From Torpedo marmorata (lineage: Eukaryota): a stretch of DNA of 64,000 nt. The stretch spans positions 55,552,001 to 55,616,000 of the forward strand of contig OZ360233.1 of assembly GCA_977017645.1 (NCBI GenBank), read 5' to 3'. The notes under the pieces were generated by a model. It did not search any database and had not been told where the DNA came from. It saw nothing but the letters and a program-made list of their open reading frames with translations. This document shows positions 17,006 through 63,400 of this stretch, one piece after another. Each line of letters starts with the position of its first letter. Position 1 is the first letter of the stretch. Position numbers and translations under genes: made by a program.

Positions 17006-19606
17006 GTGTAGAGGTTTCTCAAATCATGAGGGGCATAGATTGGGTGGTTGGTCACACATCATTTCCCAGTGTAGGAGAGGGAATAGATTTCAGGCGAGAA
17101 GGGAAAGGTTTAAAGAGGGCCTGAGGGGTACCATTATCACACAGGGCAGTGGTCATATGGACCAAGCTGCCAGAGGAAGTGGAAGAGATGAGCACAAATG
17201 CAATGTTGGGCAGGTACATGGCCAGGGAAGGTATACAGGAATGTGGGCCAGATGCAGGCAAACGGGACCAGCTCAGGTAGTGAACGTGGTCAGCATGGAT
17301 GCATTGGGCCGAAGGACCTGTAAACCTCTATGATGTTATTAGGGTAGCATGGTTAGCATTAGTGGTTCATGCAATGCTATTACAGCACCAGCAACCTGGG
17401 TTCGAATCCGGCACTATCTGTCAGGAGTTTGTACGTTCTCTCCGTGTCCATGTTCCATTGAGGTACATGGTTCATGGGTTAATTGATCACATGGGTGCAT
17501 TTGGGCGGTGCTGGCTCATGGGCCAGAAGGGCCTGTTACCGTGTTGGGCCCCCCTGAAATGGGATGCAGCAGCATGTCTCCACCTGTGGTCAGTGGTCTG
17601 GTATGCGGGCCTTTTTTTTGCCTTTTTGGAGGTAAATCAATACTGCCCCCCTTTATTATTCTTAATCCAAAAGTTATAAGTACTACATTAGTCTACAATT
17701 CAGGCTATTCACACAAAATATAAGTTCCAAATTGAAACATAATTATCTCCATCGATACTGTCAAAACCTTTGGGGGCCAACAGTTCTGGTGCATGGGCCT
17801 TGAGAATGCTTTCCCACCATTTGGGTGGCTTCCTCTATGCCTGTGGTTCTAAACCTTTATGTCATCCACAGATGATCTTAAATACTCCTTTACTTCCTGT
17901 GGACCACCCCAATCCTAGACTCCAGAATGTAGAGCATGGGAGATGCTTGAAGAAGTCATGGTGTACACTTTCCCAAACTGGCTTTCTTAAACTGTTCAAC
18001 TTGGGTCATCCACCTGACTTGATGACTATGGACCTTTCCTTTCCCCAGGTGTTCTGGCTGTGGGATTGACTGGGACCATCCAGTCCAATATTGCAGCATG
18101 GACATTGCCAAGGCAGCACATTCCAGACTCCCGAAGTCATGGAGAACACTGTCTCACGGGTAGCCTGACCCAAGACAACAAAAGCATTATTACATTACAA
18201 CACAAAGCAACACGGTGGTCAGGCACAAAATACCCATCACACAGGATGCTCTGCATTGATGGGATATTGGATTAAACACGCATTATTCCCTTGGATTCGA
18301 AGAAGGGGCACTACGCGAATGTCTGTAAGTCCCAACCGCCCGCTAGACCCAGCAGCGCCGCGTGCGAGCAGAGGGCGCCGCCATCTTGGATGACGTCATC
18401 TTCCCAACCCAGCACCACAACGTGCGAACCATGGGGGCTGCCATCTTGGACGATGCCATCTTCCCGACCCGGCAGCGCCGCATGCAAACCATGGAGGCTG
18501 CCATGTTGGGACTGAACACCCGAGCATCGCATCACACCTACAGAATCCGACAGCGACTCTGTACTGGCCTCCATCACTCTCGATCAAGGGAGCCCCAATC
18601 AACTGGCCAGATCGATGATGGACATTGAGGTGGATGGCCACAGGACGAACTGCCTTTTCGACAGTGGGAGCACGGAGAGCTTTATACACCCCAACACGGT
18701 ACAGCGTTACCGACTCGCGGCAATGCCGGGAAGCCACAAAGTCTCCATGGCAAGTCCCACACAGCAGAGATCCGCGGGTACTGTGTAGTGACCCTGACTG
18801 TACTGGGCACAGAATATAAAAACTTTAAATTACTAGTCATGACACAGTTCTGCGCGGACGTGCTACTGGGGCTAGACTTCCAATGTCACCTTAAAAGCGT
18901 GACGTTGGAGTATGATGGGCCCCATCCCCCTCTTACCATCTGCAATCCGCAGTTTGTGAACCGCCCATCGCAAGTCACCCACAGAAGCTCCCCAGGTCCC
19001 ACTCCCATCGCGTCCAGCCAGCGACCCACCGACCGCCCACCGCGCGCGACCTGCGGCCTTTCTACCCTCCGGATCACCCCCCCACCGTTGTTCACTAATC
19101 GAACCCCCGACTGAAAACCCGTGGCCACCAAAAGTAGGCGATACAGTGCCGGGGACAGGGCCTTTATCAGGTTGGAAGTGCAACGGCTGTTGAAGGAGGG
19201 GATCATCGAAGCCAGCACCAGCTCCTAGAGAGCCCAAGTGGTAGTGGAAAGAAATGGGGAAAAGAACAGGATGGTCATCAATTATAGTCAGACCATCAAC
19301 AGATAAACGCAGCTGGATGCGTACCCCCTCCCCCGCATAGCCGACATGGTGAATCAGATCGCCCAGTACCGGGTATTCTCCACCATTGACTTAAAGTCAG
19401 CATACCACCAACTCCCCATCCGACCGGAGGACAGCCAATACACTGCCTTCGAGGCAGCTGGCCGCCTCTATCATTTCCTGAGGGTCCCCTTTGGTGTCAC
19501 CAACGGGGTCTCGGTCTTCCAGCGGGTGATGGTCAACCAGTACGGGCTGCAGGCCACATTCCCGTATCTGGATAATATCACCATTTGCGGCCATGACCTA
19601 CAGGAT

Positions 19607-20843
19607 TTGTGATGAAATGCTTTGAGAGGCTGGTCATGGCCAGAATTAACACATACCTAAGCAAAGATCTGGACCCACTGCAATTCGCCTATCGCCACAA
19701 TCGCTCCACAGCAGATGCAATATCGCTGGCTCTCCACTCAGCTCTGGACCACCTCGAAAACAGCAATTCATACATACGGTTGCTCTTCATCGACTACAGC
19801 TCGGCCTTCAACACCATTATTCCCTCAGTGCTGGTCAAGAAGCTACAAACTCTAGGCCTCTGTACCCTCCTCTGCAACTGGATCCTTGACTTTCTCATCG
19901 GAAGACCACAGTCAGTACGAATTGGAAACAACGTCTCCTCCTCACTGATTATCAACACAGGTGCACCCCAAGGATCCGTGCTTAGTCCACTGCTCTACTC
20001 GTTATACACTCATGACTGTGTGGCCAGGCACAATTCCAATGCCATATACAAGTTTGCCGATGACACCACAGTTGTTGGCAGAATCACAAACGGCAATGAG
20101 GAAGCATACAGGAGGGAGAAGGATCAGCTCGTTGAATGGTGTAATGGCAACAACCTTGAGCTCAACGTCAGCAAAACCAAGGAGATGATTGTGGACTTCA
20201 GGAGGAAGTCAGGGGAACATGACCCAGTCCTCATCGACGGCTCAGTCGTGGAGAGGGTCAATAACTTCAAATTCCTGGGTGTCAACATCTCCGAGGATCT
20301 GTCCTGGAGCATCCACGTGGATGCAATCACAAAGAAGGCTCGTCAGCGGCTATACTTTGTCAGGTGTTTACGGAGATTCGGTATGTCACCAAAGACTCTC
20401 GTAAACTTCTACAGGTGTACCATGGAGAGCATTCTGGCTGGTTGCATCACTGCCTGGTATGGAGGTGCCAACTCCCAGGACAAGAGTAAACTCCAGAAGG
20501 TTGTTACTCGGCCTGTGACATCACAGGCACCAAACTTCACTCCATCGAGGACATCTATATGAGTCCGTGTCCTTAAAAAGCAGCCTCTATCCTCAAGGAC
20601 CCCCACCACCCAGGCCATGCCCTCTTCACTCTGCTTCCATCGGGAAAAAGGTACAGGAGCCTAAAGACGAGCACTCAACGTCCCAAGGACAGCTTGTTCC
20701 CCGCTGCCATCAGATAATAATGTCGTTAGATGGTTAATATGAATGTTAATTGCACTATGATGCTGCCGCAAAACACCGAATTTCATGACTTGTTCATGAC
20801 AATAAATTCTGATTCTGATTCTGATTCTGATTCTGATTCTGAT
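19607..20843 (+). mobile_element. Rex1/Babar-type LINE (5'-truncated) inserted in the Gypsy RT
   Basis: ORF 19609-20562 with [26 protein letters not shown]; (ATTCTG)n tail; the host Gypsy frame resumes GHDLQD|HEANLQKFL. Confidence 0.92.
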
Positions 20844-22485: not shown

Positions 22486-23653
22486 GACCCCTCCCCTCCT
22501 CTGACCGCAACGTGTACTTCCTCAACATTATTGATGAGTACTCACGTTTCCCGTTCGCCATCCCCTGCCCGGACATGACCACAGCCACAGTCATCAAGGT
22601 CCTATGCAACCTTTTCACCCTCTTCAGGTACCCCTGCTATATCCATAGCGACCGGTGGTCCTCTTTTAAGAGTGAGGAGCTGCATCAGTACCTGCTGGCC
22701 AGAGGCATCACCACGAGTAGGACCACCAGTTATAATCCCCGAGGGAACGGGCAGGTGGAGAGGGCGAACGCTACCGTTTGGAAGGCCACCCTCCTAGCCC
22801 TAAGGTCAAGAGGTCTTCCAGTCTCCCGCTGGCAAGAGGTACTCCCTGAGGCACTCCATTCAATCAGATCACTCTTGTGCACAGCCACCAATGCCACTCC
22901 ACATGAGAGAATGTTTTCCTTTCTTAGGAAGTCCGCTTCAGGGACCATGCTGCCGTCCTGGCTGACGTCCCCAGGGCAGGTCCTACTCCGGAGGCACGCG
23001 AGGAGCCATAAGCATGACCCACTGGTCGAAAGGGTCCATCTCCTCCACGCCAACCCCCAATACGCCTACGTGATGTATCCTGATGGGCGGGACGACACGG
23101 TCTCCGTTCGGGACCTGGCACCCTCAGGAGTCCCTGACACCACTGACGACCATCCTGCCCCCTCCCCACCCATCGCCACCCACGATGCACCCTTACCATG
23201 GCAAGTGACCCCAGCTCCGGGGGATGGCTTGCCAGATACTTCGCCGCCACGCATCTATCAACACAGAGCCAACAACAACACACAGGTGGTCCACTCAGGA
23301 CTGGATGCAACAGCTGTGCCGCAGCCGGTACTACGACGGTCGCAGCGGCAGACCAGACCACCTGAAAGACTGAACCTGTGAGAACTTTAATTCACTTCAC
23401 CCCGCAGGACTCTTTTAAAAAGGAGGGGTGAATGTGGTAAACCACTGTAAATACATGTATATATGTTTATGGTCGTCTGGACACGCCCCTTACTGGCTGT
23501 ACCTGTGGCTCCTCCCACAGACCCTTGAATAAAGGCTATTGTGCCACAGCTCCCTCCCCAGTCCAGCACAGACAACCACCAGGAGTGAACATCCATTCCA
23601 ATGTGAATAAAATCCTATCAGTTCCTGTCTAACTTCTAGTCTTTGGAGTTATT

Positions 23654-24580
23654 TTATTTTTTCAAATATTTTATTTAAAATTTTTAAATCACAGAATACA
23701 TAATATAAAATGCAAAATTATCAAAATACATGTGATACATTTTCAACCCCCCTCCCTCCCTCCCCTCCCTAACCCTCCCACCCCTACTAATCTACTAAAA
23801 TAGAAAAGAAAGAAAGAAAAAAAGAAAAAGATAATGTCAATCTAAAAAAGGACAACTATAAGCTTATTTTATTGTGGAAGATAGGTTCGCCAGTCAGATC
23901 TGATATCCAGAGATCTTTAAATCCTTAAACTAACAGTTTTTATATATGGGCTCCATATTTTCAAAAAGAAATGATATTTATTACGTAAATTATAAGTAAT
24001 TTTTTCAAGTGGTATAGCTAAACGAAGTTCTGCATGCCATCTTTCTAACCCTAAATCTACATCAGATTTCCAAGTAATAGCAATGCATTTCTTAGAAACA
24101 GCTGAAGCAATTCGCAAAAATTCTATTTGATACATATTTAATTTCATCTTAATACTAATTCTTTTAATATCTCCAAACTAAAATATCATAGGGTCCATTG
24201 GAAGTGTAATATTTAATACCTTGTCTAAAAAATTTTTAACTTTCAACCAAAAATCATATATCTTTGGACAGTACCATGTAGAATGTAAAAAAGAACCTTC
24301 CTCTCTATTACATCTGAAACATAAACCTGATAATGTCGGATTAAATTTCTTTAATTTCTTAGGTGTTAGATATAATTGATGAAAAAAATTATATTGCACT
24401 AACCTATATCTAACGTTAATAATCTTCATCATACTTTGTTTAGATAGTTCTTTCCAATGTTCTTCACCTATTGTTACATTAAGATCTGATTCCCATTTTA
24501 ATCTTGATTTATGAACTCCTAATTTAGGCATTTTTCTCTGTAACAATATACATTTGAGAAATAAATTTATTTACACCTCC
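23654..24580 (-). mobile_element. L1-clade LINE 3' fragment inserted in the Gypsy 3' LTR
   Basis: ORF2 C-terminal CFRC...H...C zinc motif; A-rich tail; 16-bp TSD AGTCTTTGGAGTTATT (23638-23653, 24581-24596). Confidence 0.9.
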
Positions 24581-24608
24581 AGTCTTTGGAGTTATTGATG
24601 GTGAATCA

Positions 24609-27280
24609 GAAGGTAGAAGCTGAGAGGTGATAGGGGGAGAGGGAAGAGGCCTAAGAAGGGTGGCTTTCTGATAGGAGAAGGAAGGGAAGGGGGTGGAGAG
24701 GTGGAGGAAAGGAAACGGAGGGGTAAGGAAAGAGAGAGACTGGGGGAGGGGGTTGATGGAAAATGAAGAAGTCAATATTGATGCCGTCTGGAGACTGTCG
24801 AACAGAATACAAGTTGTTGTTTTTCCAATTTGCGGTTGCCTCGATTTGGCATTACACAAGGCCATGGACAAACATGTCAATGTGGGAATGAGGTGTGGAA
24901 TTGATGTGGTTGGCCACTGAAAGGTCCTTGCTGTTGCAGCAGGCAGTGCGACTGTGCTCAGTGGAACGATCTCCCAGTCTGCGTCCAATCTCCCCGATGT
25001 AGAGGGGGCCACATCGGGAGCACCAGATGTAGTAAATGACCCCTAGAGATTCACAGGTGAAGTGTTGCTTCACTTGGAAGGACCGTTTGGGGCCCCGAAT
25101 GGTGGTGTGGGAGGAGGTGTAGGTGCAAGTGTAGCACTTCTTGAGGTCACAGGGGTAGGTTCCAGGGAGGTGATGGTGGGAAGGGATGAGTGGAAAAGGG
25201 AGTCACAGAGGGCGTGGTCCCCATAGAAAGTGGGGAGGGGAGGAGAGGGGAAGATGCGTCTGGTGGTGGGATCGTGTTGTAGGTGGCGGAAACTGTGGAG
25301 AATGATATGTTGGATGCGGAGGCTGGTGGGATGGTAGGTGAGGACAAGGGGAATCCTGTCCTTGTTGCGTTTAGGGGGCGGAGGAGCCAGGACAGATGTT
25401 CAAGAATGAGAGGAGAATCAGGTAAGGCATGAATTAATTGCAGAAGGGAAACCTTGCTTTCTGAAGAGGCAGGCCATCTCAGATGCCCTGGATTGGAAGG
25501 CTCATCCTGGGAGCAAATCGATGGAGACGGAGGAATTGAAAGAAAAGAATAGAATCCTTACTGGAGACAGGGAGGATAAAGGTGTAGTCAAGGTAACTGT
25601 CAGAGTTAATGGGTTTATAGAAGATGTCTGTAGAGAGTTTGTCTCCCGAGATGGAGTCAGAGATTGAGAAGGGAGAGAGAGTTACCGGGCATGTAACGTG
25701 AATTTGAGGTCAGGGGGAAAGCGAGCAGCAAAGTGGATAAAGTTGACGAGCTTATCATGGGTGTGGGAGGCAACACCAATGTAGTCATCAGTGTAGCTGG
25801 GAAAGAGTTGTGGAGCCTTGCCTGCGTGGGTTTGCAGCATGGATTGCTCCACAGAGCCAATGAAAAGACAGGCACTTTGACTTGGAGAGAGTGGGATGAG
25901 TCAAAGGAGAAGTTCTTTTTAAAAAAAAATATTTTATTTAAAATTTTTAAATCACAAAATACATAAAATGAAATATAAAATTATCAAAATATTTGTGATA
26001 CATTTTCACCCCCCCTCCCCAACCCTCCCAACCCCACTAATCTAATAAAAATAAAAATATAAAATAAAAATAGGAAAGGAAGAAGAAAAAAGAAAGAAAA
26101 AGATAGAGTAAGGAGAATGTCAATCTATAAACTAATTCTATTATGGAGGTCAAGCATGCCAGTAGATCCGATATCCAGAGATCTTCAAATCCTTAAACCA
26201 ACAACTTTCATATATGGGCTCCAAATTTTTAAGAAGAAATGATACTTGTTACGTAAATTATAAGTAATTTTTTCAAGTGGTATACACGATCGAAGTTCTG
26301 CATGCCATCTTTCTAATACTAAATCTAAATCAGATTTCCAAGTAATAGTAATACATTTCTTTGAAACAGCTAAAGCAATTCGCAAAAATTCTATTTGATA
26401 CATAATTAATTTCATCTTAATACTAAATTTTCTAATATCTCCAAACAAAAATATCATAGGATCCATTGGAAATGTAATCTTAAATACTTTATCTAAATTT
26501 TTTTTAACTTTCAACCAAAAATCATAAACTTTTGGACAAAACCATGTAGAATGTACAAAAGACCCTTCCTCTTTATTACATCTAAAACATAAACCTGATA
26601 ATGTCGGATTAAATTTCTTTAGTTTTTTAGGTGTTAAATATAATTGATGAAAAAAATTGTATTGTATTAATCTATATCTAACATTAATAATCTTCGTCAT
26701 ACTTAATTTACATAATTCTTTCCAATGATTTTCATCTATTCTTACATTCAAATCTAATTCCCATTTTAATCTTGATTTATGAATTCCTACTTTAGGCATT
26801 TTCCTCTGAAACAATTTATACATTTGAGAAATAAATTTATTGACATCTCTTTAGTAACTAATAATTCTAATTCATTCTGTCTTGGTAAAATCAAAGCATA
26901 ACCTAATTTCTCAATCAGAAAAGCTCTAATTTGATAATAAGCAAAAAGTGTATTATCTAATATATTAAATTTATCTTTCATTCTTTGAAAAGTAATAAAT
27001 TTCCCAGCTTCAAAACAATCATTAATTTTCTTAATTCCTTTTTGAGGGTGAGTACAAGTTCTGTCAGGAGGAGGAGGGTGGTGAAGCAGGGGGACTGTTT
27101 CAGTCTGTTATCTAGGAAGAAGCGGTGAGCCTCGAGGCTTTCTTTGTGGGGCACGGAGGTATATCAGGGCTGGACAGTCATGGTGAAAATGAGGCAGTCC
27201 AGCCCAGGGAACTGAAAGATGTTGAAGTGATGGAGAGCATGTAAGGTGTTGCAGATGCAGGTGGGAAGGGACTGGAATAA
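24609..27280 (-). mobile_element. Decayed Penelope-like element interrupted by L1
   Basis: GIY-YIG-like FTCES..IYYIWCSRCGPLYIGE (ORF 24852-25073); RT-region remnants continue after 27045. Confidence 0.8.
25915..27045 (-). mobile_element. L1-clade LINE 3' fragment, same family as 23654-24580
   Basis: ORF 26185-26823 highly similar to the other copy (CFRCNKEEGSFVHSTWFCP); A-rich tail. Confidence 0.9.
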
Positions 27281-28683: not shown

Positions 28684-31600
28684 CTGTTGGAATGTTTCAG
28701 AACGTCCTAGAGTTCCACAGTGCAATAACAGACCCTTCGGCCCAACTTGTCCATGCTGACCAAGTTGAATTTCACCTGGGTCCAGGCCCGAAACGTTGGT
28801 TACCCTTTTACTCCCCATGGATGCTGCGTGACCTACTGAGTTTCTCCAGCACATTTGTGTGCTGGCACTCGACCCCAGTATCTGCAGACTTGCTTATTTT
28901 ACTAAACTTCAGCCAGAGGGTGGTGAATCAGTGGGATTCGTTGCCACAGACGGCTGTGGAGGCCAAGTTATTGGGTAGATTTAAAGCAGATGTGGATGGG
29001 TTCTTGATCGGTAAGGGTGTCAAAGGTTACAGGGAGAAGACAGGTGAATGGAGTTAAGAAGGAAAATACATCAGCCATGATTCGAATGGCGGAGCAGTCT
29101 TGATGGGCTAAATGGTCTAATTCTGCTCCTACATCTTATGGTCTTATGGTTCCATTTGCCTGTGTTCAGCCCACTTCCCTCGAAACCTTTGCTATCCATG
29201 GCTTCGTTCAACTGTCTTTTGAACATTACAATTGTTCCCACTTCTACCACTTCCTCTGACAGCTCGTTCCATATACTCACCACTTTCAGGTCCCTTTTAA
29301 ATCTCTCCCCCTCATCTCAAATCTATACCCTCTAGTTTAGAAGTTGCTCTCCTCAAGATCGGAAGAAGCCGCAGAAGGTGGTGAATGCAGCTCAGAACAT
29401 CACGCAAACCTCCCTCCCCTCCGGGGACTCCAATCAACATCTCCAGCTGCCTAGGAAAGTCAGTCGACACACTGAATGCCCCACCACACTCCGGACATGC
29501 TCTCTTCTCCACCCCCCCACCACCCCCCCTATCAGAGAGAAGGCTCGAGAGATTGAAAATGCACACATACAGGCTTAAAGACATTTTCTTCCCCGCAGCC
29601 ATCAGGCTCCTGAATGAACCCCACAACAATGCTCTCATGCTGCCCTTACTTATCGATCTATTTTCATTGTAACTCAATACAAGCGTTACTCTATAATTTG
29701 CAATTGTGCTCTTGTTCTTCTACCTTATACGGTCGTGTGAATGTTAGAGTTAACCTATTAGACTGCTTGAAGAAGAACCTTTCTTACTGCAGCAGGGATA
29801 ATGGTTCATCTTTCTCAGCTCCTTGCCCTCTCCCCCATCAACTCTCAGCTTCTTTCTCTTTTCCCCCCTCCCACCTGTATCCATCTATCACCTGCTAGCC
29901 TGTGCTCCTCCTCCTTCCCCTCCCCCCCCCCCCAACCCCTCTTCTTATTCAAGCGTATGCCTGATCTTTAGCACTCCTGAAGAAGGGCTCAGGTGCCAAA
30001 GACTGACTGCCTGTTGCTTTCCATGGATGCTGTAAGACCTGCTGAGTTCCCCCAGCACATTTATACACTACATTAGTTCCCTGCATCTGAAGACTTCTTG
30101 CTTACCTGTATTTTGATTTTTAGATGGATTTTGATAATATAGAGATGAACAATGGAATGTGGGTACGGAAATGGTTGGACCTGGGGTTGATTAACAGATA
30201 GAAAACAAAGAATAGGAAGGCAGGGATCATTTGCAGTTGCAGCTGAGACTACTGCTGTCCTTCAGTGATTAGATCACAAACCCAAGCTATCTGCAACCAT
30301 CATCAATACAGATAAAATTGAAAATGTAGATGCACTGTGTGCATTTACACTGCATGTACATATATAGGATGTACATATACTGTATGTGCACGTATAATGT
30401 ATGTGAATATACACTGTATGTATGTACATATACACTATGTGCAAGTCAAGTCAAGTCAAGTTTATTGTCATCTGATTGTACAAGTACAAACTGACAAAAC
30501 AGCATTCTCCAGTCCTCGGTCTAAAACACGCAGACACACAACCAGACATAATACACATACAGACAAACAATACAAGTATGCAGGACAAGTATTCATATAT
30601 ACAAACAAATAAATATATCTTGTTTCGTGAATATGAGAGTCTCGGATGGTTAGTGTGAGCAGTTCCTTTGGTCGTTCAGCATTCTCACTGCCCGTGGGAA
30701 GAAGCTGTTCCTCAGCCTGGTTGTGCTGGCTCTGATACTCCTGTATCTCTTTCCCAATGGGAGTAGCTGAAAGATGCAGTGGAAAGGGTCCTCAATGATT
30801 TTGCACGCCCTCTTCAGACAACAATCCCGGTAGATCACATCGATGTGGTGGGGGGGGGGGGGGAGACGCCAGTTATCCTCTTTGCCACTCTTATGGTCTT
30901 GTAGATTGACCTCCGATCCATTTCTCTGCAGCAACTGTACCACACTGTGATGCAGCCAGCCAGGAAGCTCTCAATAGAGCTCCTATAGAAGGTTGACGTA
31001 ACGGTGGCCGGTAGCCTTGCCTGCTTCTGTCTTCTCAGGAAGTGCAGTTGCTGTTGCGTCTTCCTGACAAGAGAGGAGATGTTGTGTGTCCACGATAGGT
31101 CACTAGTTAAGTGAACTCCAAGGAACTTGGTGCTCCCCACTCTCTCCACTACAGAGTTATTGATGTGTAGTGGAGGGTGGCTGTTCCTGGTCCTCCTGAA
31201 GTCCACGATCATCTCATTCGACTTGTCTACGCTGAGACTCAAGTTGTTACTCTTGCACCAAATCACAAGATTTTCCACCTCATCGTTGTTGCTGATGAGG
31301 CCAACTACTGTTGTGTCACCTGCAAACTTGATGACCCTGTTGGAGCTGGATCTGGCGATGCAGTCGTGGGTGAGTAGCGTGAACAGGAGCGGGCTGAGCA
31401 CACAGTCCTGAGGTGCGCCAGTGCTCAGCGCGACAGTGCTCGACATTCTGCTATCGACCTGGACAGACTGTGGTCTTTCCGTTAGGATGTCCAGGATCCA
31501 GTAACAGAGAGGGGTGTTGAGTCCCAGCGAGGCAGCTTCTCCACCAGCCTCTGGGGAATGATCATATTAAATGCCGAACTGAAGTCGATGAACAGCAGCC

Positions 31601-31956
31601 TGGCGTATGGGGCATCATTCTCCAGGTGTGTCAGGACGGAGAGAAGGGACAAGGCTATAGCATTGTCTGTGGAATGGTTTCTTCTATAGGTGAATTGAAA
31701 TGGGTCCAGCGTCTCTGGGAGGTGTGCTTTGATGCGTTCCACCACCAGATGCTCGAAGCATTTCATAATAGTGGAGCTCAGTGCCACAGGGCGGTAGTCA
31801 TTGAGGCCTGTTATTTTTGCCCCCTTACGTATCAGGATGATGGTGGCTGTCTTGAACTTTGCAGGAACGATGGACTGCTGCAGTGAGGTGTTGAAGATGC
31901 CCGTGAAGACCTCCGTCAATTGGTCTGCGCAGTCCTTCAGTACCCGACCAGGTATG

Positions 31957-34900
31957 TGATGTACCTATCAATGACTAACACGAGTCAGGAAGTGCAGGGA
32001 ATCAATAGGCTTTTATTACCAGAAATCAGGCCAGGGCTAAGCTACACTTTGACCTGGTGATCCCTGCTGGACTGTCCCGGAACTGTGGGTGGAGTCAATG
32101 GCTCAAGGCCTTTATTCCAGGGGAAAGGGGGAGGAGTCACCGGGACAGACAGACAGGTCATGATCAGACTTGCCCCAGCCCACAATACACATATACATAC
32201 TATAGTGGTTTACCACATTCACCCCTTCTTTTAGAACAAGTCCGACGGGGGGGGGGTGAAGTGGTCACCGTAATTAAAGATACACAAATCACACAAAAAT
32301 ACTCAAATTATTTACATAGTCGCCATCACATCTACAGATTGAGTCTATCCGGCGGTCGGGCTCGCCGCTGTGACCTGCGTAATACCTGCGGTGATGGCGC
32401 GGGCGATGATTGCAGTTGTGGCTGTGGAACGAGGGTAGGGTGGGTCTGGGTCTGGGTTGCCTCCTGCCTGGCTTGTGGCTCGTCCAGCTCCGGCTGGGGC
32501 GTTGTACCCGCCGTGCTGGGGGGCGGATGAGGCGGAGGGGGCAGCTGTGACCCGGCTTCTCCGCTGTCGGGGACCTCTTCTGACGCTCCTGTAGGCGCCA
32601 GGTCCCGTATTGACACCGTGTCTTCCCGGCCGTCGGGGAAAACAATGAATGCGTACTGCGGGTTCGCGTGGGTCAGCTGCACCCTCTCGACCAAGGACTC
32701 GTACTTGCTACTCCGAAGATGTTTGCGGAGTAGCACCGGTCCCGGGGACGTCAGCCAGTCAGGGAGGGTAGTTCCGGTGGTCGATTTTCTAGGGAAGGAA
32801 AAAAGACGTTCGTGAGGGGTAGCGTTAGTGGCGGTACATAACAGGGATCGTATAGAGTGGAGGGCGTCCAGGAGAACCTCCTGCCAGCGGGCCACTGGCC
32901 ACCCTTTTGATTTCAGGGCCAGTAGTGTAGCTGTCCATACAGTGGCGTTCTCCCTCTCCACCTGTCCGTTCCCCCGTGGGTTGTACCCCGTGGTCCTACT
33001 GGTGGCGATGCCTCGGGCCTGCAGGTACTGCCGCAGCTCCTCGCTCATGAACGCGGATCCCCGATCGCTATGGACATAGCTGGGGAACCCGAACAAGGTG
33101 AATACCTGGCGGAGGGCTTTGATAGCCGAAGCCGCCGAGGTATCGGGGCAGGGGATGGCAAAGGGGAACCGCGAGTACTCATCGATGATATTAAGGAAGT
33201 ACACGTTGCGGTTCGTGGAGGGAAGGGGGCCCTTGAAGTCTATACTGAGACGTTCGAACGGGCGGGTGGCCTTGACCAGCTGTGCTCTGTCGGGGCGGTA
33301 GTACTGCGGTTTGCATTCCGCACAGACTCGGCAGCTGCTGGTCATGGTTCGGACCTCTTCCAGGGAGTAAGGCAGGTTCCGTGCTTTGATGAAGTGGAAC
33401 AGCCTGGTGACTCCTGGGTGGCAGAGGTCGTTGTGTAGGGAGTATACTCGGTCGATCTGCGCGCTGGCGCACGATCCCCGGGATAGAGCATCGGAGGGCT
33501 CGTTGAGCTTCCCGGGCCGGTAAAGGATGTCGTAATTGTAGGTGGAGAGTTCTATTCTCCACCTCATGATTTTATCATTCTTGATTTTACCCCGCTGCTG
33601 GTTGTTAAACATGAATGCAACGGAGCGCTGGTCCGTCAGCAGGGTAAAACTTTTTCCGGCGAGATAGTGCCTCCAGTGCCGAATAGCCTCAACTATGGCC
33701 TGGGCCTCTTTCTCTACCGCGGAGTGCCGAATTTCGGGGCCTTGAAGGGTGCGGGAGAAAAACGCTACCGGTCTTCCCGCCTGGTTGAGGGTAGCAGCCA
33801 GTGCGAAGTCCGAGGCGTCACTCTCCACCTGAAAAGGTACCGACTAGTCCACCGCGTGCATCGCTGCTCGGGCGATGTCCCCTTTTATGAGGTCGAAGGC
33901 CTCGCGTGCCTCCGCTGCCAGGGGAAACTTGGTGGATTTGACGAGGGGTCTGGCTTTGTCCGCGTAGTTTGGGACCCACTGCGCATAATACGAGAAGAAC
34001 CCGAGGCATCGTTTAAGGGCTTTGGGGGTGTGGGGAATCGGAAGTTCCAACAGGGGGCGCATGCGGTCGGGGTCGGGTCCAATCACCCCGTTCTCCACGA
34101 CGCACCCCAGGATAGCGAGTCGGGTAGTCCCGAACACGCATTTCTCCTTGTTATAAGTGAGGTTCAGCGTCTTGGCCGCCTGTAGGAACTTCCGAAGGTT
34201 CCTATCGTGATCCTGGCGATCATGACCACAAATGGTGATGTCGTCCAGGTACGGGAAGGTGGCAGTGAGTTTGAACTGGTCAATGATCCTGTCCATCTCC
34301 CGTTGAAACACAGATACCCCGTTTGTTACCCCGAAGGGGACGCGCAGAAAATGGAATAATCTGCCGTCCGCCTCGAAAGCGGTGTACGCTCGGTCTTCCC
34401 GGCGAATCGGAAGCTGGTGGTAAGCCGACTTTAGATCGATGGTGGAAAATATTTTGTACTGCGCAATCTGGTTGACCATATCCGCGATTCTTGGCAGCGG
34501 ATAGGCATCCAGTTGCGTGAACCGGTTAATGGTCTGGCTATAGTCCACCATCATCCGGCTCTTAGCCCCGTTCTTCACTACGACTACCTGTGCTCTCCAG
34601 GGGCTGTTACTGCGTGCGATGATCCCTTCCCCCAGTAGACGATGCACCTCCGCCTTAATGAATGCCCTGTCCCCTGCACTGTATCGCCTACTTTTAGTTG
34701 CTACAGGCTTACAGTCAGGGGTCAGGTTGGCGAAAAGTGACGGGGGTTGGGTCTTCAGCGTGGAGAGACCACAGGTAGTCTGGGGCGTATTACTCAAATA
34801 CTGGGGGTTAGTCACTACGATCGGAGGGTGGGGCCCATCATAGTGCATGGTGACGCTTCGCAGGTGGCTTTGGAAGTCCAGTCCCAGCAATACAGGAGCA

Positions 34901-36578
34901 CACAAACGGGGCATGACCAACAATGAAAACCCGCGATATTCCGTGCCCTGTACCACTATATTCGCCACACAACCCCCCCGGATGTCTGTTGTGTGCGTTC
35001 CAGACGCCATGGCCACCCTCTGGCTTACCGGTACAATTGTGAGGCCACAGCGCTGGACGGTGTCTGGATGAACAAAACTTTCAGTGCTGCCTGTGTCGAA
35101 CAGGCAGGTCGTCTTATGCCCCTCAACTAGTATGTCCATCATCGATCTGGACAGCTGATGGGGCGCGCTCTGATCCAGCGTCACGGATGCCAGGGTCGGG
35201 ACGAAGTCTTGATCCGATGAGCCGTCTTGATCCGACGCTGACGGCAGCTCCCGTAGGTCGCACGTGTCGCTACAAGATGGCGGCGCCGGAAGTGCTGGAA
35301 GTGCTGCGGTGAGGCTGTAAAATGGCCTTGCCGGAAGTGTCGATACCGGAAATGCCGAAGGCCAAGATGGCCGCCTCCATTCCTCGCATGAGGTCACCGC
35401 CGGAAGTGACGACAGGTAAGATGGCCGCTCCCTTACTTCGCACGCGGCGCTGCTCGGACCCGTACGCGACTTGGAGCGGCAGGCCTTAGCATAGTGGCCT
35501 TTCTTGCCGCAGCTAGAACAAGTCGCGTCTCGGGCCGGGCAGCGCTTACGTGTTTGTCGAGCCCGCAGAAGTAATACTTCTCGGGCTCCCGGGTAACAGC
35601 GGCAGCGGTTAACTCATGGATGGCGGCGGGCTCCCGGGTAGCGGCGGCAGCGGCCAACTCACGGATAGCGTCGGCGGCGGCGATCGGGTCCCGGTAGACG
35701 GCAGCGGCAGTCACGTCGCTTGCAGGGCTGGCGGTTGGGGCGATCCACGAGGCAGGCTGCGCCTGCATAGCGTCAGCGTTCCTGAGCGCCGACTCCAGCG
35801 TGAGGGCCGTGCGGACGGTAGATTTCAGGGTCAGGTCGGCGTGTTCCAGCAATCGCTGGCGAATGTAAACCGACCTGAGCCCCATAATGATAGTGTCCCT
35901 TGCCAATATTTCAGCGTGTTGCTCGGCCGTCAGGGCTCGGCAATCGCACGCCCGCACCAGGAGCTGCACGTCCTGGATATACTCGGAGATCGACTCTCCG
36001 GGTCGCTGGCGCCGTTGCGATAACCTGTGCCTCGCGTAAACCTCGTTCACCGGCGTCAGGTACAGTCTTCGGAGGGCTCCCAAGGCATCCTCATAGGTTT
36101 CACAGTCTCTGACGGTGTTATACACCCGTTTGCTTACCCTAGACATGAGGATGTCGAGTTTATCCTCGTTGGTAGCCGCTCTGGTCGACCTCAGGAAGGC
36201 TACGAAGCAGCGTAGCCAGAGTTCAAAGTCACTTGCGGCGTCTTGGGTCAGGGGGTCGATGTCCAGCTTGTCCGGCCTCAGAAAATTCTCCATCAGATTT
36301 AGAACTGGTAATAAAATTGATGTACCTATCAATGACTAACACGAGTCAGGAAGTGCAGGAAATCAATAGGCTTTTATTACCAGAAATCAGGCCAGGGCTA
36401 AGCTACACTTTGACCTGGTGATCCCTGCTGGACTGTCCCGGAACTGTGGGTGGAGTCAATGGCTCAAGGCCTTTATTCCAGGGGAAAGGGGGAGGAGTCA
36501 CCGGGACAGACAGACAGGTCATGATCAGACTTGTCCCAGCCCACAATACACATATACATACTATAGTGGTTTACCACA
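31957..36578 (-). mobile_element. Full-length young Ty3/Gypsy LTR retrotransposon (gag-PR-RT-RH-IN)
   Basis: LTRs 31957-32217 and 36318-36578 (261 bp, TG..CA, 2 differences by eye); 5-bp TSD GTATG at 31952-31956 and 36579-36583; polypurine tract AAAAGAAGGGGTGAA next to the 3' LTR; motifs FDTGS, YLDD, SDASD, HPG..CxxC, SDRG, GQVER. Confidence 0.97.
32332..36293 (-). pseudogene. gag-pol ORF of the Gypsy element, broken by one frameshift (~35551) and one nonsense codon (33846-33844)
   Basis: The gag frame shifts inside the zinc-knuckle region (FCGLDKH / RKRCPARDATCSSCGKKGHYAKAC). pol reads AVD*SVPFQVESDASD where the related element reads AVDESTPFQVESDASD. Confidence 0.85.
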
Positions 36579-38102
36579 GTATGTTGTCTGGTCCCGCCGC
36601 CTTGTGTGTATTCACCTTGGATAGGGTTCTCCTCACCTTGGCCGCGGCTATGCAGGGGGCCTGTTCAACAGGGGGACACGGAGCTTTCTTTGGCATCATC
36701 CTGTTCTTCTCATCAAACCGTGCATAGAAGATGTTCAGTCTGTCCGGAAGGGAGGTGCGCATATACACTGTATGTAGATATATATTGAATGTACAAGTAC
36801 ACAGAATGTGCACATACACTGTATGTACATGTACACTGTATGTACACAAACTCCAAGACAACGCAGACCCTGGGACTCTATATGATTCCTGCATATTCCC
36901 ACTTAACCTACCTCCTATGTGGAATGATTTGAATTTCAGGCCACAGACAATGGATTCTGACATAGTCTGGGAGAATTCCTACTTATTTTTTACTCATTCC
37001 TGATGATCAACTACAAATCATGACAGATTTCATTGGGATCCCATAATGGTTACGGTGAATCTACCCCCCACTGTGCTGTTAGGCAGGGGTTTCATGCATT
37101 TGAACCAATAGCAATTGAAGAAGACTAATAAAATACCAAGCCAGGAGGTACCTGACATTGAGAGGAAGTTGAGTTGAGGGAGTTTCCATTGTCCAACGAA
37201 CTACTTAAAATCTACTGGACTTTCCAACATGCTACTTGTGTACATACATTGCGGAGTAACTGATATAGATGAAGGCTAGATGTTGCTGTTCGTCCAATGG
37301 AAAATCAAAAAATTATGAGACGGCTACACAATTGTTTACATAATCCACTGAAGAACAATACCAAGATTTCTGGAAATTGAAATAAAACCTAAACAATGTT
37401 AGACGTGATCACCGAATCAGGCTCCATCTGTGGAAAAAGAAATTGCTATAATCTGAAGCATGAACTTTGCTTCCATCTCTATTGATGTTGCATGAAACTG
37501 AATATTTCTCTCGGAATAGTTAGACAGCCTCCATAGGAAGTAAGTGATAAACGCTGGTTGCCCTTTACTTCCTATGGATGCTGCGTGACTTGCTGAGTTT
37601 CGTCGAAATGGGAATAGTGAGATTTATTTTGCTTCTGTAACAACCAACGATTGGCACATGAATGGAAAATCAACAGCCCGTCATCACCAGAAGCATCAGA
37701 TTGGCAAAGGAAGGAAGTGCCTGCAACTTAGGCAGGAAGAGAGTCTCTCTCCAACCACTCCAAGCTGGGTAACTGTGGATTGTCATGGATGCTATGAAAT
37801 GCACCAATTGCAACGGTTGGAACTGAATTTGATCACAGATTTTCCACCATTTCAAACTTCTGATTCATGTAGGTATTGTGAATTAAGAATTGAATATAAT
37901 CATTTTGTCTTTTGAAACAAGATTGACCGAGCTAGGGCTTTTCTCTTTGGATGAGACGAGACTTAATGGAGGTGTATAAAATTATGAGAGGTCTAGATAG
38001 AGTGGACAGCCAGCACCTTTTTTCCTAGGGCAGCAATGGCCAACACCAGTGGGTACCTGTTTATGGTGAGTGGATGAAACTTTAGGGGAGACATCAGAGG
38101 TA

Positions 38103-56870: not shown

Positions 56871-58054
56871 AACAGATACATGGATAGGATGGGTTTAGAG
56901 GGATGTGTGCCAAACGCAATCTGGTGAGAAAAGTGTGGGTGGGACATTTTGGTCAGCGTGGGCAAGTTGGGCCAAAGGGCCTGTTTCCACACTGTATAAC
57001 TTTGTCTCTAAGGCTTAAAGTGGTTAATATACCACAATACCACATCTAGTTTCTGATTAATAACATGATACCCAGTTCTGGAAATTCACTACACTGACCT
57101 TCTGGAGTTGATTTGCTGTTTAACGATCTCTCAAAAAGTTCTCAAGATGTCATGAAATTCATTAGTGCCTCTCCAGAAACCCTGTCACTGACCTCGCTCG
57201 ATAACTCTAATCTTCTCCAGGAATTGCCGGCAGTTTGGAGATGAATTTCCTGTTATGGACAGATCTGCCCACAGCATGTAGCCTGTATGGACTCGCAGCA
57301 CCATACCAGCAACAGCTGCGAGGTGTTGGCAAGGGTTGGTTGGATGTGGGAGGAGTGGTGAAGTGGTGGAGCCATCCTGCGGGAAGGGAGTGGTAGGAGT
57401 ATGGGTGAGGAGGAGGCGGAGGCTTCCCATTATAAAGGAGGTTGAGCAAGGAGATGTCCATTAAGGCGTGAGTGGCCCAGGTAAATGATGTCCTTCTGGG
57501 AGCCCCGCGTGGTGCCTCCTGGGGTGAATCCAAAGGTCACGTTTATACTCCATAGAAATGCAGCAGTGAACTATTGCATATGGGGACGTCTCAACAAAGA
57601 CCTTCCACACAGATCCCTGGCAAGGTTTTTAGACAGTGTTGCTGCCCCTGACTTGCAGTGGGAGAGTGGGTGATGCAAACCTCTCTGAGCGAGCACACAC
57701 AGGTCCTGCATATATCTACCAGGTGTGTTTGGTAATACCCAATGGTGAATGCGAACCAAGCGATTTGGGGCACAATGTTCTGGGTCCACAGAGTCTCTGT
57801 GGACATGTGGCCAATCCTATCACTACCCGCAGTCAAAATCCACTGGGACAAAGCAGTGGGCAATTGGACTCCAAACAATTAGATGGTGACATTAATACTG
57901 CAAATCATCCACTGTTCACGTATTTATGTTCCATTTTAACCACAACTGCATTTTAGGTTGATAGAATGGTTTATTGTCCCACTCTAGGACTCCGAATCAG
58001 ACGCATTCCCATTTAGGACTTTCCAATGGGCCAAACAGTTCATTCCCTCAGTAG

Positions 58055-58445
58055 CATCCTCCGTCCCATCCCATCAACCCCGTCCCATCCCATCAACCCC
58101 GTCCCATCCCATCAACCCCGTCCCATCCCATCATACTCCGTCCCTATCCCATCATCCCCGTCCTATCCCATGATCCTCTGTCCCTATTCCATCATCCCCA
58201 TCCCCATCCCATCACCCTCGGTCCCCATCCCATGATCCTCTGTCCCTATCCCATCATCCTCCATCCCCATCCCATCATCCTCCATCCCATCATCCTCCAT
58301 CCCATCCCATCATCCTCCATCCCATCCCATCATCCTCCATCCCATCCCATCATCCTCCATCCCCTTCCCATCACCCCCCATTCCCATCCGATCATCCTCC
58401 ACCCCCATCCCATCCCATCAGCCCCTGTTCCATCCCATCATTCCC
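58055..58445 (+). repeat. (CCATC/CCATCAT)n low-complexity array
   Basis: Directly visible. Confidence 0.95.
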
Positions 58446-58562
58446 CATTGGGTGTTCCTGCCCAAACACCACCTCAGTGATGGATCCCAGCCCTGTGACA
58501 TACGAGCCCCATCCCTCAACCCACATCCTATAATGGCCGCAGCTGTGGCAGGTTTAGCTCAC

Positions 58563-58664
58563 CTGCTCCTGGATTTTATCCCAAACTTCCCTCACACCGG
58601 TTCCATTGTTAACTTGCAGTTCTTCCAAACCCTTTATCATGTCTTTTTTGATGTAATTGTCTAT
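58563..58664 (-). CDS. CD53: CD53-like tetraspanin, internal exon (start of large extracellular loop): IDNYIKKDMIKGLEELQVNNGTGVREVWDKIQEQ
   Basis: Minus strand reads tctctgttttgcAG|...|GTgagc; 102 nt, phase 0-0. The WDxIQ motif precedes the CCG exon, as in tetraspanins. Earlier exons were not found and probably lie beyond 64000. Confidence 0.85.
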
Positions 58665-58769
58665 CTGCAAAACAGAGACAGCAATGTTACGAGGAGACTG
58701 GGAGTTTCATCTTTCATTTGCCACAAACCGTGTGAGACCAGGAATAATTATTCAGACAAGGTGAGAGGG

Positions 58770-59410
58770 GGAATGATGAGGTGGAAGGTGGAATGATGGG
58801 ATGGCGGAGCGGGGAAAGGTAATGACGGGATGGGGACGGAGGATGGTAGGGTGGGGCACAGGATGATAGGACGGGTAGAGGATGATGGGACAGAGATGGG
58901 GAATGATGGGATGGGGATGATGGGATGGGGATGGGAATGATGGGATGGGATGGAGGATGATGGGATGGGGATGGAGGATGATGGGATGGGACGGAGGATG
59001 GTAGGGTGGGGCACAGGATAATGGGACGGGTAGAGGATGATGGGACAGAGATGGGGAATGATGGGATGGGGATGATGGAATGGGGATGGAGGATGATGGG
59101 ATGGGGAAGGAGGATGATGGGATGGGGAGGAGGATGATGGGATGGGGACGGGATGGAAGATGATGGGATGACAGAGCAGGGACAGGTAATGACGGGATGG
59201 TAGGGTGGGGCACAGGATGATGGGACGGGCACAGGATGATGGGACAGAGATGGGGAATGATGGGATGGGAACGGAGGATGATGGGATGGGGACGGAGGAT
59301 GATGGGATGGGGACGGAGGATGATGGGATGGGGACGGAGGATGATGGGATGGGAAGGAGGATGATGGGATGGGGATGGGATGGGGATGAGGATGATGGGA
59401 TGGGGATGAC
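58770..59410 (-). repeat. Same (CCATC)n-type array in inverted orientation (GATGG on the plus strand)
   Basis: Directly visible; reverse complement of 58055-58445. Confidence 0.95.
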
Positions 59411-60090: not shown

Positions 60091-60486
60091 GAGTGCACTA
60101 CTTTACTGCTGCATTGGAGGGAATATTGCAGCCAATTGACACTCAAGAGGCTGCAGGAGAGAGCAACGTCGAAACAACCAGTTTCTCGAGTTTAATGAAT
60201 GAAAAAACTCAACCAAAATCCTGCAGATGTTGGAAATCTGACACAAAAACTCAAATTGCTAGAAACACTCAGCACAAAACAAGAAACATCTTCACGCGGA
60301 GAATGGTGAAGGTGTGGAAAACTTTACCATGCACGGCAGAGGAGGTCAAGTCATTCAATATATTCAAGAAGGGTATGGAGCAAAATCCCAATAGTCTGAT
60401 GTTTGACCTTTCAGAAATCTTGATAGTTCGGCCTCTGGCTGACAGCGTTCCCTCTCGCACAATGGCGACTAGTTCCCTCACTGCCT

Positions 60487-63400
60487 CTCACACACCGGCT
60501 CCCCAGTCCCCTCACTCACACACCGGCTCCCCAGTCCCCTCACTCACACACCGGCTCCCCAGTCCCCTCACTCACACACCGGCTCCCCATTTAACTCACT
60601 CACACACTGGCTCCCCAGTCCCCTCACTCACACACCGGCTCCCCATTCCCTCACTCACACACCGGCTCCCCATTCCCTCACTCACACACCGGCTCCACAG
60701 TCCCCTCACTCACACACCGACTCCCCATTTCCCTCACTCACACACCGGCTCCACAGTCCCCTCACTCACACACCGGCTCCCCAGTCCCCTCACTCACACA
60801 CTAGAGCTCAGCCCCCTCACTCACACACCGGCTCCCCAGTCCCCTCACTCACACACCGGCTCCACAGTCGCCTCACTCACACACCGGCTCCCCAGTTCCC
60901 TCACTCACACACCGGCTCCCCAGTCCCCTCACTTACACACCGGCTCCCCATTTAACTCACTCACACACCGGCTCCCCATTCCCTCACTCACACACCGGCT
61001 CCCCAGTCCCCTCACTCACACACCGGCTCCCCAGTCCCCTCACTCACACACCGGCTCCCCAGTCCCCTCACTCACACACCGGCTCCCCATTCCCTCACTC
61101 ACACACCGGCTCCCCATTCCCTCACTCACACACCGGCTCCCCTGTCCCCTCACTCACACACCGGCTCCCCAGTCCCCTCACTCACACACCGGCTCCCCAG
61201 TCCCCTCACTCACACACCGGCTCCCCAGTCCCCTCACTCACACAACGGCTCCCCAGTCCCCTCACTCACACACCGGCTCCCCAGTCCCCTCACTCACACA
61301 CCGGCTCCCCATTTAACTCACTCACACACCGGCTCCCCATTCCCTCACTCACACACCGGCTCCCCATTCCCTCACTCACACACCGGCTCCCCAGTCCCTC
61401 ACTCACACACCGGCTCCCCATTCCCTCACTCACACACCGGCTCCCCAGTCCCCTCACTCACACACCGGTTCCCCATTCCCTCACTCACACACCGGCTCCC
61501 CAGTCCCCTCACTCACACACCGGCTCCCCAGTTCCCTCACTCACAAACCGGCTCCCCAGTCCCCTCACTCACACACTGGCTCCCCAGTCCCTTCACTCAC
61601 ACACCGGCTCCCCATTTCCCTCACTCACACACGGGCTCCCCAGTCCCCTCACTCACACACCGGCTCCCCAGCCCCCTCACTCACACACCGGCTCCCCAGT
61701 CCCCTCACTCACACACCGGCTCCCCAGTCCCCTCACTCACACACCGGCTCCCCAGTCCCCTCACTCACACACTGGCTCCCCAGCCCCCTCACTCACACAC
61801 TGGCTCCCCAGCCCCCTCACTCACACACCGGCTCCCCAGTCCCCTCACTCACACACTGGCTCCCCAGCCCCCTCACTCACACACCGGCTCCCCAGTTCCG
61901 TCACTCACACACCGGCTCCCCAGTCCCCACACTCACACACCGGCTCCCCAGCCCCCTCACTCACACACCGGCTCCCCAGTCCCCTCACTCACACACCGGC
62001 TCCCCAGTTCCCTCACTCACACACCGGCTCCCCAGTTCCCTCACTCACACACCGGCTCCCCAGTTCCCTCACTCACACACCGGCTCCCCAGTTCCCTCAC
62101 TCACACACCGGCTCCCCAGTTCCCTCACTCACACACCGGCTCCCCATTCCCTCACTCACACACCGGCTCCCCAGTTCCCTCACTCACACACTGGCTCCCC
62201 AGTTCCCTCACTCACACACTGGCTCCCCAGTTCCCTCACTCACACACCGGCTCCCCAGTTCCCTCACTCACACACCGGCTCCCCAGTTCCCTCACTCACA
62301 CACCGGCTCCCCAGTTCCCTCACTCACACACCGGCTCCCCAGTCCCCTCACTCACACACTGGCTCCCCAGTTCCCTCACTCACACACCGGCTCCCCAGTC
62401 CCCTCACTCACACACCGGCTCCCCATTCCCTCACTCACACACCGGCTCCCCAGTTCCCTCACTCACACACCGGCTCCCCAGTTCCCTCACTCACACACCG
62501 GCTCCCCATTCCCTCACTCACACACCGGCTCCCCAGTCCCCTCACTCACACACTGGCTCCCCAGTTCCCTCACTCACACACTGGCTCCCCAGTTCCCTCA
62601 CTCACACACCGGCTCCCCAGTTCCCTCACTCACACACCGGCTCCCCAGTCCCCTCACTCACACACCGGCTCCCCAGTTCCCTCACTCACACACCGGCTCC
62701 CCAGTCCCCTCACTCACACACCGGCTCCACAGTTCCCTCACTCACACACTGGCTCCACAGTTCCCTCACTCACACACCGGCTCCCCATTCCCTCACTCAC
62801 ACACTGGCTCCCCAGTTCCCTCACTCACACAACGGCTCCCCAGTCCCCTCACTCATACACTGGCTCCCCAGTTCCCTCACTCACACACCGGCTCCCCAGT
62901 CCCTCACTTACACACCGGCTCCCCATTTAACTCACTCACACACCGGCTCCCCAGTCCCCTCACTCACACACCGGCTCCCCAGCCCCCTCACTCACACACC
63001 GGCTCCCCATTTAACTCACTCACACACCGGCTCCCCAGTCCCCTCACTCACACACCGGCTCCCCAGTCCCCTCACTCACACACCGGCTCCCCAGTTCCCT
63101 CACTCACACACCGGCTCCCCAGTCCCCTCACTTACACACCGGCTCCCCAGTCCCCTCACTCACACACCGGCTCCCCAGTCCCCTCACTCACACACTGGCT
63201 CCCCATTCCCTGACTCACACACCGGCTCCCCAGTCCCCTCACTCACACACTGGCTCCCCATTCCCTCACTCACACACCGGCTCCCCAGAACCCTCACTCA
63301 CACACTGGCTCCCCATTCCCTCACTCACACACCGGCTCCCCAGTTCCCTCACTCACACACCGGCTCCCCAGTCCCTCACTTACACACCGGCTCCCCATTT

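Follow-up and report, generated by a model that had tools for sequence, protein, structure and literature searches.

A self-complementary site in place of a tRNA primer-binding site in a non-chromoviral Ty3/gypsy clade, and its likely use in self-priming

Self-primed Ty3/gypsy retrotransposons are described from fission yeasts, including Tf1 and Tf2 of Schizosaccharomyces pombe and Tj1 of S. japonicus (PMC7175516, PMC4600332, PMC5341516). In Tf1, the transcript's first 11 bases pair with the primer-binding site (PBS); the cut by RNase H falls between bases 11 and 12 (PMC7175516). Self-priming has been demonstrated in Tf1, and it has been proposed in Tf2, Tj1, the fungal and vertebrate Tf1/sushi elements, Tcn1, and TAR (PMC4600332, PMC5341516, PMC6317226, PMC6934838), and self-primers are described as lying at transcript 5' ends (PMC5006619). 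For the Tf1/sushi elements of vertebrates and fungi and for the plant Tcn1 chromoviruses, the prediction was drawn from complementarity between the PBS and the LTR (PMC6317226, PMC4600332). For the TAR lineage of plant Ty1/copia elements (Houba and Osr-1), self-priming is predicted from at least 10 bp of pairing that starts 0 to 5 nt past the LTR (PMC6317226). Self-priming is regarded as characteristic of the Tf1/sushi chromoviruses, with one proposed plant copia case in addition. In the vertebrate Tf1/sushi elements, it was reportedly predicted by Butler et al. in 2001. Here we describe a Ty3/gypsy element of Torpedo marmorata, and the clade to which it belongs, in which the sequence at the PBS position complements a stretch of the LTR of the same element.

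The element in the window and the site behind its 5' LTR

The window (the whole stretch of 64,000 nucleotides analyzed, from contig OZ360233.1) contains a full-length and young Ty3/gypsy copy on the minus strand (31957-36578), and all features of this copy given below lie on that strand. Its LTRs are 261 nt long, have TG...CA ends, and differ from each other at 2 positions (5' LTR, 36318-36578; 3' LTR, 31957-32217). They are flanked by a 5-bp target-site duplication that reads CATAC in element sense (left copy, 36579-36583; right copy, 31952-31956), and a polypurine tract (32222-32232) is found 4 nt 5' of the 3' LTR, so that the paired LTRs, the duplication, and the tract are those of a Ty3/gypsy element. 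Pfam domains of protease, reverse transcriptase (RT), RNase H, and integrase were identified in gypsy order with RT ahead of integrase, and the integrase-before-RT order of Gmr1-like gypsy elements was not seen. The copy is damaged by a frame change late in gag and by a stop between RT and RNase H: the gag reading frame (35433-36293) departs from the pol frame near the zinc-knuckle region, the protease and RT part (33844-35613) is terminated by the in-frame stop, and the RNase H and integrase part (32332-33843) follows without a chromodomain. The nearest solved structure to this RT is that of Ty3. The gag of the window copy has no Pfam match, and Retrotrans_gag was detected in 4 of 25 relatives; the window gag is gag-like by its atlas score of 0.95 to clusters carrying Retrotrans_gag in 17 to 37%.

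Other repeats are present in the window. Two LINE-type RT frames with a Pfam ALKBH8_N match were identified (19597-20562, plus strand; 30835-31566, minus strand), one of which sits within an element of a sister family (family 2), while the element described here (family 1) was apparently inserted into the other. Tandem arrays occupy 60369-63900, 58000-59400, 3606-5166, and 1944-2198, with units of 28, ∼20 to 21, 42, and 24 nt, respectively, and several long stop-free frames of the window are products of these arrays.

The mature 3' end of a tRNA requires TGG in the PBS. No TGG follows the 5' LTR of the window element, as the preliminary description had noted. A single A (36317) separates the CA end of the LTR from a 12-mer at the PBS position (36305-36316), which is the exact reverse complement of an LTR segment at 36372-36383 and of its 3'-LTR copy at 32011-32022; our analysis confirmed these coordinates, together with the gag ATG at 36293, 24 nt past the LTR. 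The AATAAA hexamer (36373-36378) plus one further A forms the end of the paired LTR segment, which is the putative self-primer with a predicted cut 3' of 36372, and its copy in the 3' LTR is the probable working poly(A) signal. A TGG does occur within the gag start (ATGG, 25 nt downstream), and it was rejected as a PBS given that it is too far from the LTR end and that the sequence behind it varies with the protein.

The same description had proposed that the pairing can extend across a short bulge by ATTGAT/ATCAAT. Both folding of the leader and alignment folding favor instead a stem GCCUAUUGAU/AUUGAUAGGU of 10 bp (36362-36371 with 36324-36333), which is predicted to stack on the 12-bp helix. 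The 5' arm of this predicted U5 stem begins with GCC directly past the putative cut, and its 3' arm is followed by a 7-nt bulge that contains the LTR end. The fold of the 156-nt leader is only moderately better than those of shuffled sequences (z, -2.1; 5 of 200 shuffles were equally good). The ATTGAT-N5-ATCA end that had been ascribed to the LTR of the related element maps to 24594-24608, past an insertion that interrupts that LTR.

The site could in principle be a chance match in an A/T-rich stretch, as 7 of the 12 pairs of the window helix are A-U, or else the outcome of a deletion in an element that once had a normal PBS. We assign a negligible probability to both. When the 115 nt upstream were dinucleotide-shuffled, the pairing averaged 4.2 bp with a maximum of 9 bp, and none of 1,500 shuffles reached 12 bp. 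A deletion allele is at odds with the 40 scored copies, all of which match by at least 99% across the LTR, leader, and gag start, and with the PBS 12-mer being unbroken in all 30 fetched copies of the family.

Copies, sister families, and covariation

Searches of the 6.2-Gb T. marmorata genome with the gag of the element returned at least 150 matches at 97 to 100% identity, many of them in a single open frame of ∼1,330 codons, and the closest named proteins are from rays and sharks. The family is young and abundant, and it thus replicates with the self-complementary site. Pairing is perfect in 29 of the 30 fetched copies, and the self-complementary site is the normal state of the family, not a deletion allele. 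Altogether, 199 loci of this genome were examined, 181 of which have a gag start; a duplex is recognizable in 178 of these and not in the other 3. None of the 178 duplex copies carries a TGG PBS, the presence of which in relatives had been named in the preliminary description as evidence against its reading. Over the first 12 pairs, the 178 copies have 2,093 Watson-Crick, 10 G-U, and 33 mismatched cells, a tally of copies and not of independent events.

Sister families pair through other sequences. Family 2, which is represented in the window by a 3' LTR on the plus strand (23433-24608) split by an insertion at ∼23654-24577, uses a different LTR segment, and its full-length copies carry a matching 14-mer behind the LTR that is fully paired over 14 bp. 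More distant gag queries retrieved further families in the same genome, one of them with an 18-bp pairing that ends in AGTAAA. Among copies that are 97% identical in the remainder of the LTR, single and fully compensated changes were found, including A-T to T-A transversions. A set of 11 copies was hand-picked from this genome for distinct perfect haplotypes, so that its pairing percentage (153 of 154 cells) is no test, while its compensated changes, with both sides altered at 6 of the 14 pairs, are. Sliding the partner by 1 to 3 columns in this set lowered the pairing from 99% to 38 to 55%, and RNAalifold recovered the same helix unaided, plus the adjacent stem. Uncompensated states occur in a few copies, including T-G at pair 8 in two of them and A-G in another two that are independent of each other.

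Several observations were made alongside the copy survey. Three loci on small contigs of this genome (L066, L077, and L289) share a flank, an inverted LTR piece abutting the element, and the same helix mismatch, and they are one insertion that was duplicated. The 0.9-kb insertion in the family-2 3' LTR (23635-24596), just downstream of the hexamer, starts T-rich and has a target duplication of 19 nt with one mismatch. It resembles an antisense LINE's 3' end, and a stretch at 26164-26463 is 90% identical to it. Gmr1-like gypsy copies, with the integrase before the RT, are abundant in the genome (L233 and L236 to L239). In 5 of 10 fetched copies of this type, the frame passes from the end of the integrase directly into the post-RT region with no RT core in between, suggestive of a deletion derivative that was amplified.

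A harvest based on the pol alignment added 80 metagenome, 1 viral, and 19 genome-bin loci. Together with the loci of the T. marmorata genome, 120 included the start of gag with sufficient DNA upstream of it, and these formed 33 clusters at 85% gag identity, i.e., 31 ingroup families (5 from this genome and 26 from other assemblies) and 2 outgroup clusters. In the best copy per family, 29 of the 31 ingroup families show pairing of 10 to 19 bp and thus reach the length of at least 10 bp used for Tf1-type sites; the other two (L136, 9 bp; L142, 8 bp) both appear damaged. The element's own LTR is strictly the best partner of the site in 30 of the 31 families. Own pairing has a median of 14 bp, against a mean of 5.5 bp across families, where 11 bp or more was reached in 3 of 930 pairs. 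Complementarity is therefore conserved and accompanied by compensatory changes on both sides among sister families, which is the outcome of the covariation test proposed in the preliminary description. Because the own LTR is the best partner and both sides change in sister families, the pairing is not due to chance.

The geometry of the site is also conserved. The helix begins 1 nt past the CA in 27 of 29 families, a TGG at the site (0 to 5 nt from the LTR) occurs in none of the 29, and the 3' LTR confirms the LTR end where both LTRs are in the locus (e.g., L091, L092, L103, L119, L155, and L175). On the LTR side, RCY stands directly behind the paired segment in 25 of 29 families. Each family is represented here by the copy that pairs best, with the helix defined by maximal Watson-Crick length, by which lengths are inflated and G-U pairs deflated. 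The comparison was repeated with copies picked by gag score and with motif anchors that are blind to complementarity. Pairs 4 to 12 were then fully paired in 18 of 26 families and paired at 7 to 8 of the 9 positions in 3, the anchors were wrong in 5, and 5 further families had no usable anchor. These motif-only anchors gave 200 Watson-Crick, 3 G-U, and 31 mismatched pairs over the 26 families. The feature is real and clade-wide.

The association with the poly(A) signal is real on these sequences, if looser than the pairing itself. AATAAA or ATTAAA closes the paired segment in 19 of 29 families. A further canonical hexamer lies downstream in the LTR in only 2 of the 29. In 10 of 29 families, the pairing is kept although the hexamer is not canonical. 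The hexamer of the paired segment was lost in L140, L166, and L153, where 12 to 15 bp of pairing are retained. Near-complete copies of the clade were also seen on contigs in bacterial genome bins (L172 to L176 and L185), presumably host DNA in those bins.

Choice of primer and proposed mechanism

A set of 36 host tRNA genes was compared with the sites; it represents 12 isoacceptors, with Ile, Met, Leu, Ser, and Trp among those absent, and 1 of the 36 is a spurious call with a 2.5-kb intron. The best Watson-Crick match in this incomplete set was at most 7 bp, versus 12 to 18 bp to the own LTR. Allowing G-U pairs raised this to 8 to 12 pairs for the T-rich sites, a number expected of such sites by chance; the matched tRNA stretches often end at position 24. 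A half-tRNA-Ile primer was considered and rejected, as it suits only some family-3 sites, which we take to resemble the anticodon loop of tRNA-Ile, and not families 1, 2, or 4. Priming by a host tRNA, half-tRNA, or other small RNA would be in line with these 8 to 12 pairs and with the half-tRNA priming that occurs in copia-type elements (PMC6317226). We nonetheless consider a host RNA very unlikely to be the primer: besides the short Watson-Crick matches, the site offers no TGG to match a CCA end, and it differs from family to family while tracking the own LTR.

The only consistent partner of the post-LTR site is the element's own LTR segment. A minus-strand primer must bind beside the 5' LTR, because the primer defines the LTR end. 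Taken together, the comparisons indicate that minus-strand DNA synthesis of the element is likely self-primed in the manner of Tf1, by a 5' fold-back and an RNase H cut. The leader RNA would fold so as to pair an LTR segment of 12 to 18 nt, which usually has the poly(A) hexamer at its end, with the position 1 nt past the 5' LTR, and a stem of the form RCC...GGY in the 5' leader would stack on this primer helix. The RNase H of the element would then cut at the AAA/RCC junction, just 3' of the segment, to create the primer 3' end. Strong-stop DNA would span only the 24 to 87 nt from the LTR end to the cut, and it would be transferred to the RNA 3' end through the ∼15 to 25 nt between the hexamer and the poly(A) site. 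Plus-strand synthesis would copy the primer into a new PBS and so rewrite the site in each cycle, and this copying would explain why changes are compensated immediately and by Watson-Crick pairs only. The near absence of G-U in the helix fits such copying when set against the adjacent stem, where 23 G-U were counted in 131 pairs, with the caveat that both counts are biased by method, the stem having been searched with G-U permitted.

The preliminary description had interpreted the site as a candidate for self-priming and had named a matching host tRNA, a normal TGG site in relatives, and complementarity not conserved across the family as contrary observations. All were looked for and none came true, with the tRNA comparison covering 12 isoacceptors, and the self-priming interpretation is thus supported. 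It had left the choice between a fold-back of the same RNA, priming from the RNA 3' end, and occlusion of the 5' poly(A) signal. Our analysis favors the 5' fold-back on account of the helix lying 1 nt from the LTR end, the U5 stem, and the persistence of pairing without a hexamer; occlusion is probably secondary.

For the RNA 3' end to provide the primer, the same segment from the element's own or a co-packaged RNA would pair with the PBS, be trimmed, and prime. The segment is present in both LTRs, and copying of such a primer would yield identical covariation, so that the sequences are equally compatible with pairing in cis and in trans. The stacked stem of the own-genome families, however, depends on the end of U5, which lies 7 nt ahead of the PBS and which a polyadenylated end would probably lack, and trimming would presumably delete the R overlap that is needed in strand transfer. 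These points make a 3'-end primer unlikely.

The fold-back helix would also hide the hexamer in the 5' LTR alone, the masking being specific to the 5' LTR because the pairing partner lies outside the LTR. It may be asked whether the helix merely masks the 5'-LTR poly(A) signal, perhaps aiding dimerization or gag translation, while another primer is used. This is suggested by the same 5' specificity, by the hexamers that end the segment in 19 of 29 families, and by the scarcity of alternative hexamers downstream. Masking has no need, on the other hand, for a fixed distance of 1 nt or for near-zero G-U, the pairing is found also in hexamer-less families such as L140 and L166, and the minus-strand primer must bind exactly here, where no other site is present. 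A role restricted to masking is accordingly quite unlikely in our assessment. Since the pairing is kept where the hexamer is absent and its position is fixed, masking of the 5' poly(A) signal is probably secondary to priming, likely a by-product or a second function.

Whether the self-primer would lie at the very 5' end of the transcript, as in Tf1, depends on the start site. A TATA-like AATAAAGG (36470-36477) is found 32 nt before the A of an initiator-like CAGT (36443-36446), which makes them a candidate core promoter, with 36445 as the candidate start of transcription, 62 nt ahead of the paired segment. AATAAAG and CAGT are exactly 32 nt apart in 117 of 144 copies of families 1 to 3, while the distance to the helix varies from 39 to 62 nt; the TATA-like/CAGT pair was not seen in family 4 or in the non-fish families. 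A TATA-like motif 25 to 35 nt upstream of the paired segment is absent in all 29 families. In families 2 and 3, by comparison, the pairing ends sharply at 14 bp behind an initiator-like CCATTC, and this sharp 5' edge is as expected if the primer 5' end were there, which favors a plain Tf1 geometry. On balance, the motifs lead us to lean slightly toward an upstream start in families 1 to 3. Such a start would make the primer internal and longer than the first 11 nt of Tf1, and it raises a mechanical problem, namely, what halts the plus-strand copying of a 50- to 75-nt primer. A predicted hairpin (36384-36425) abuts the 5' edge of the paired segment, and families 2 and 3 (L064 and L054) look likewise by eye. 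This hairpin, which RNAalifold did not recover, could bound plus-strand copying if transcription starts upstream. Contigs of two related runs from one sample, of a kind that does not mark transcript starts or ends, were compared with the leader. No difference within the two paired segments stood among the 40 of 58 entries listed, which we do not count as evidence. A search for poly(A)-tailed retrocopies that would mark the poly(A) site returned 12 overlapping matches at 2 places, an uninformative outcome.

Clade identity and comparison with known systems

A quick IQ-TREE analysis of 48 RT sequences (midpoint rooted, excluding 4 with short RT, and built without Tf1 or sushi sequences) placed all self-complementary elements in one group of 36 (SH-aLRT, 99; branch, 0.83), which is separate from the TGG outgroups and from the Gmr1-like copies. 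The outgroup gypsy loci L178, L183, and L184, which we take to be Mag/SURL-like, have normal TGG sites and ∼32% RT identity and fall on the opposite side of the 0.83 branch; viral contigs contributed one outgroup locus only. Neither a Chromo nor an SH3_Tf2-1 domain was found in the 25 pol proteins scanned, 22 of them with an integrase core, or in the window copy, and by domain content the clade is not chromoviral. A search of the genome with SH3_Tf2-1 retrieved Gmr1-like elements and not sushi-type ones, and a search for DUF4939 gag, run without a positive control, retrieved none. Named proteins related to those of the clade occur in cnidarians, a sea cucumber, a mollusc, nematodes, insects, spiders, an isopod, and cartilaginous fish. 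We infer from them an animal-wide range of the site itself, these relatives being known from proteins and the DNA sites from the T. marmorata genome and from the 26 families of other assemblies.

The clade may correspond to Cigr-1, whose elements have short LTRs, a length of ∼4.2 kb, one gag-pol frame, and a gag resembling Mag/SURL types; we treat this correspondence as a lead only. Cigr-1 elements (Ciona; RepeatMasker class LTR/Gypsy-Cigr) have been reported from tunicates, molluscs, and annelids (PMC6238403, PMC8556966), and neither "PBS" nor "primer binding" appears in the main text of these two reports. The Saci2/lennie elements were considered as an identity and set aside, as they are described with tRNA sites (PMC12471100, PMC4558846).

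If the proposed mechanism holds, a second and widespread animal gypsy clade would use tRNA-free priming, which would then be common and probably of repeated origin. Such repeated origin is relevant to the question, discussed previously (PMC3601003), of whether priming began with a hairpin or with a tRNA. The elements of the clade would also evade the silencing that 3' tRNA fragments exert through the PBS (PMC7472051). Annotation tools that require a tRNA PBS would label such elements defective. The conserved AAA/RCC junction pinpoints a single bond, in a family that is young and has many unbroken copies.

The comparison with described systems places the clade nearest in its proposed mechanism to Tf1, Tf2, and Tj1, which likewise have no tRNA site and a PBS complementary to a segment of their own 5' LTR. 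The predicted U5 stem of the clade lies beside the primer helix, and Lin and Levin reportedly described in 1998 a U5 stem beside the primer helix of Tf1. The differences from Tf1 are several. The Tf1 primer consists of the 11 nt at the start of the transcript, whereas the putative primer of the clade is 10 to 19 nt long, lies 24 to 87 nt from the PBS, usually ends in a poly(A) hexamer, and may be internal to the transcript. The Tf1 integrase carries a chromodomain, which is lacking in 25 of 25 pol proteins of the clade. A primer freed by RNase H has been demonstrated for Tf1, and that of the clade is predicted from sequence pairing. The same distinction in domain content separates the clade from the Tf1/sushi and Tcn1 elements, which are chromoviruses, while the clade has no chromodomain or SH3_Tf2-1 match. 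The TAR lineage is alike in being non-chromoviral, and its length threshold is reached by 29 of the 31 families of the clade; it is an unrelated lineage, however, of the Copia superfamily in plants.

In HIV-1, an RNA structure, the polyA hairpin, hides the AAUAAA near the 5' end. The clade is predicted to hide its 5' poly(A) signal by RNA structure as well, with the difference that HIV-1 uses a tRNA primer and a hairpin inside R, and the masking partner in the clade is the PBS itself. Self-priming in a non-chromoviral animal gypsy clade was not found in the full-text literature searched, to which Repbase Reports, GyDB, and subscription journals do not belong. It is conceivable, albeit at somewhat less than even probability, that the clade evolved tRNA-free priming independently of Tf1/sushi, with an internal R primer that ends in the poly(A) signal and with one helix that masks the 5' poly(A) signal and, after the RNase H cut at the AAA/RCC junction, also primes and renews its own site in each cycle. 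Relative to the systems above, in which self-priming itself is already known, what is new here is the likely use of a poly(A)-signal segment, and perhaps of an internal primer, outside the chromoviruses.
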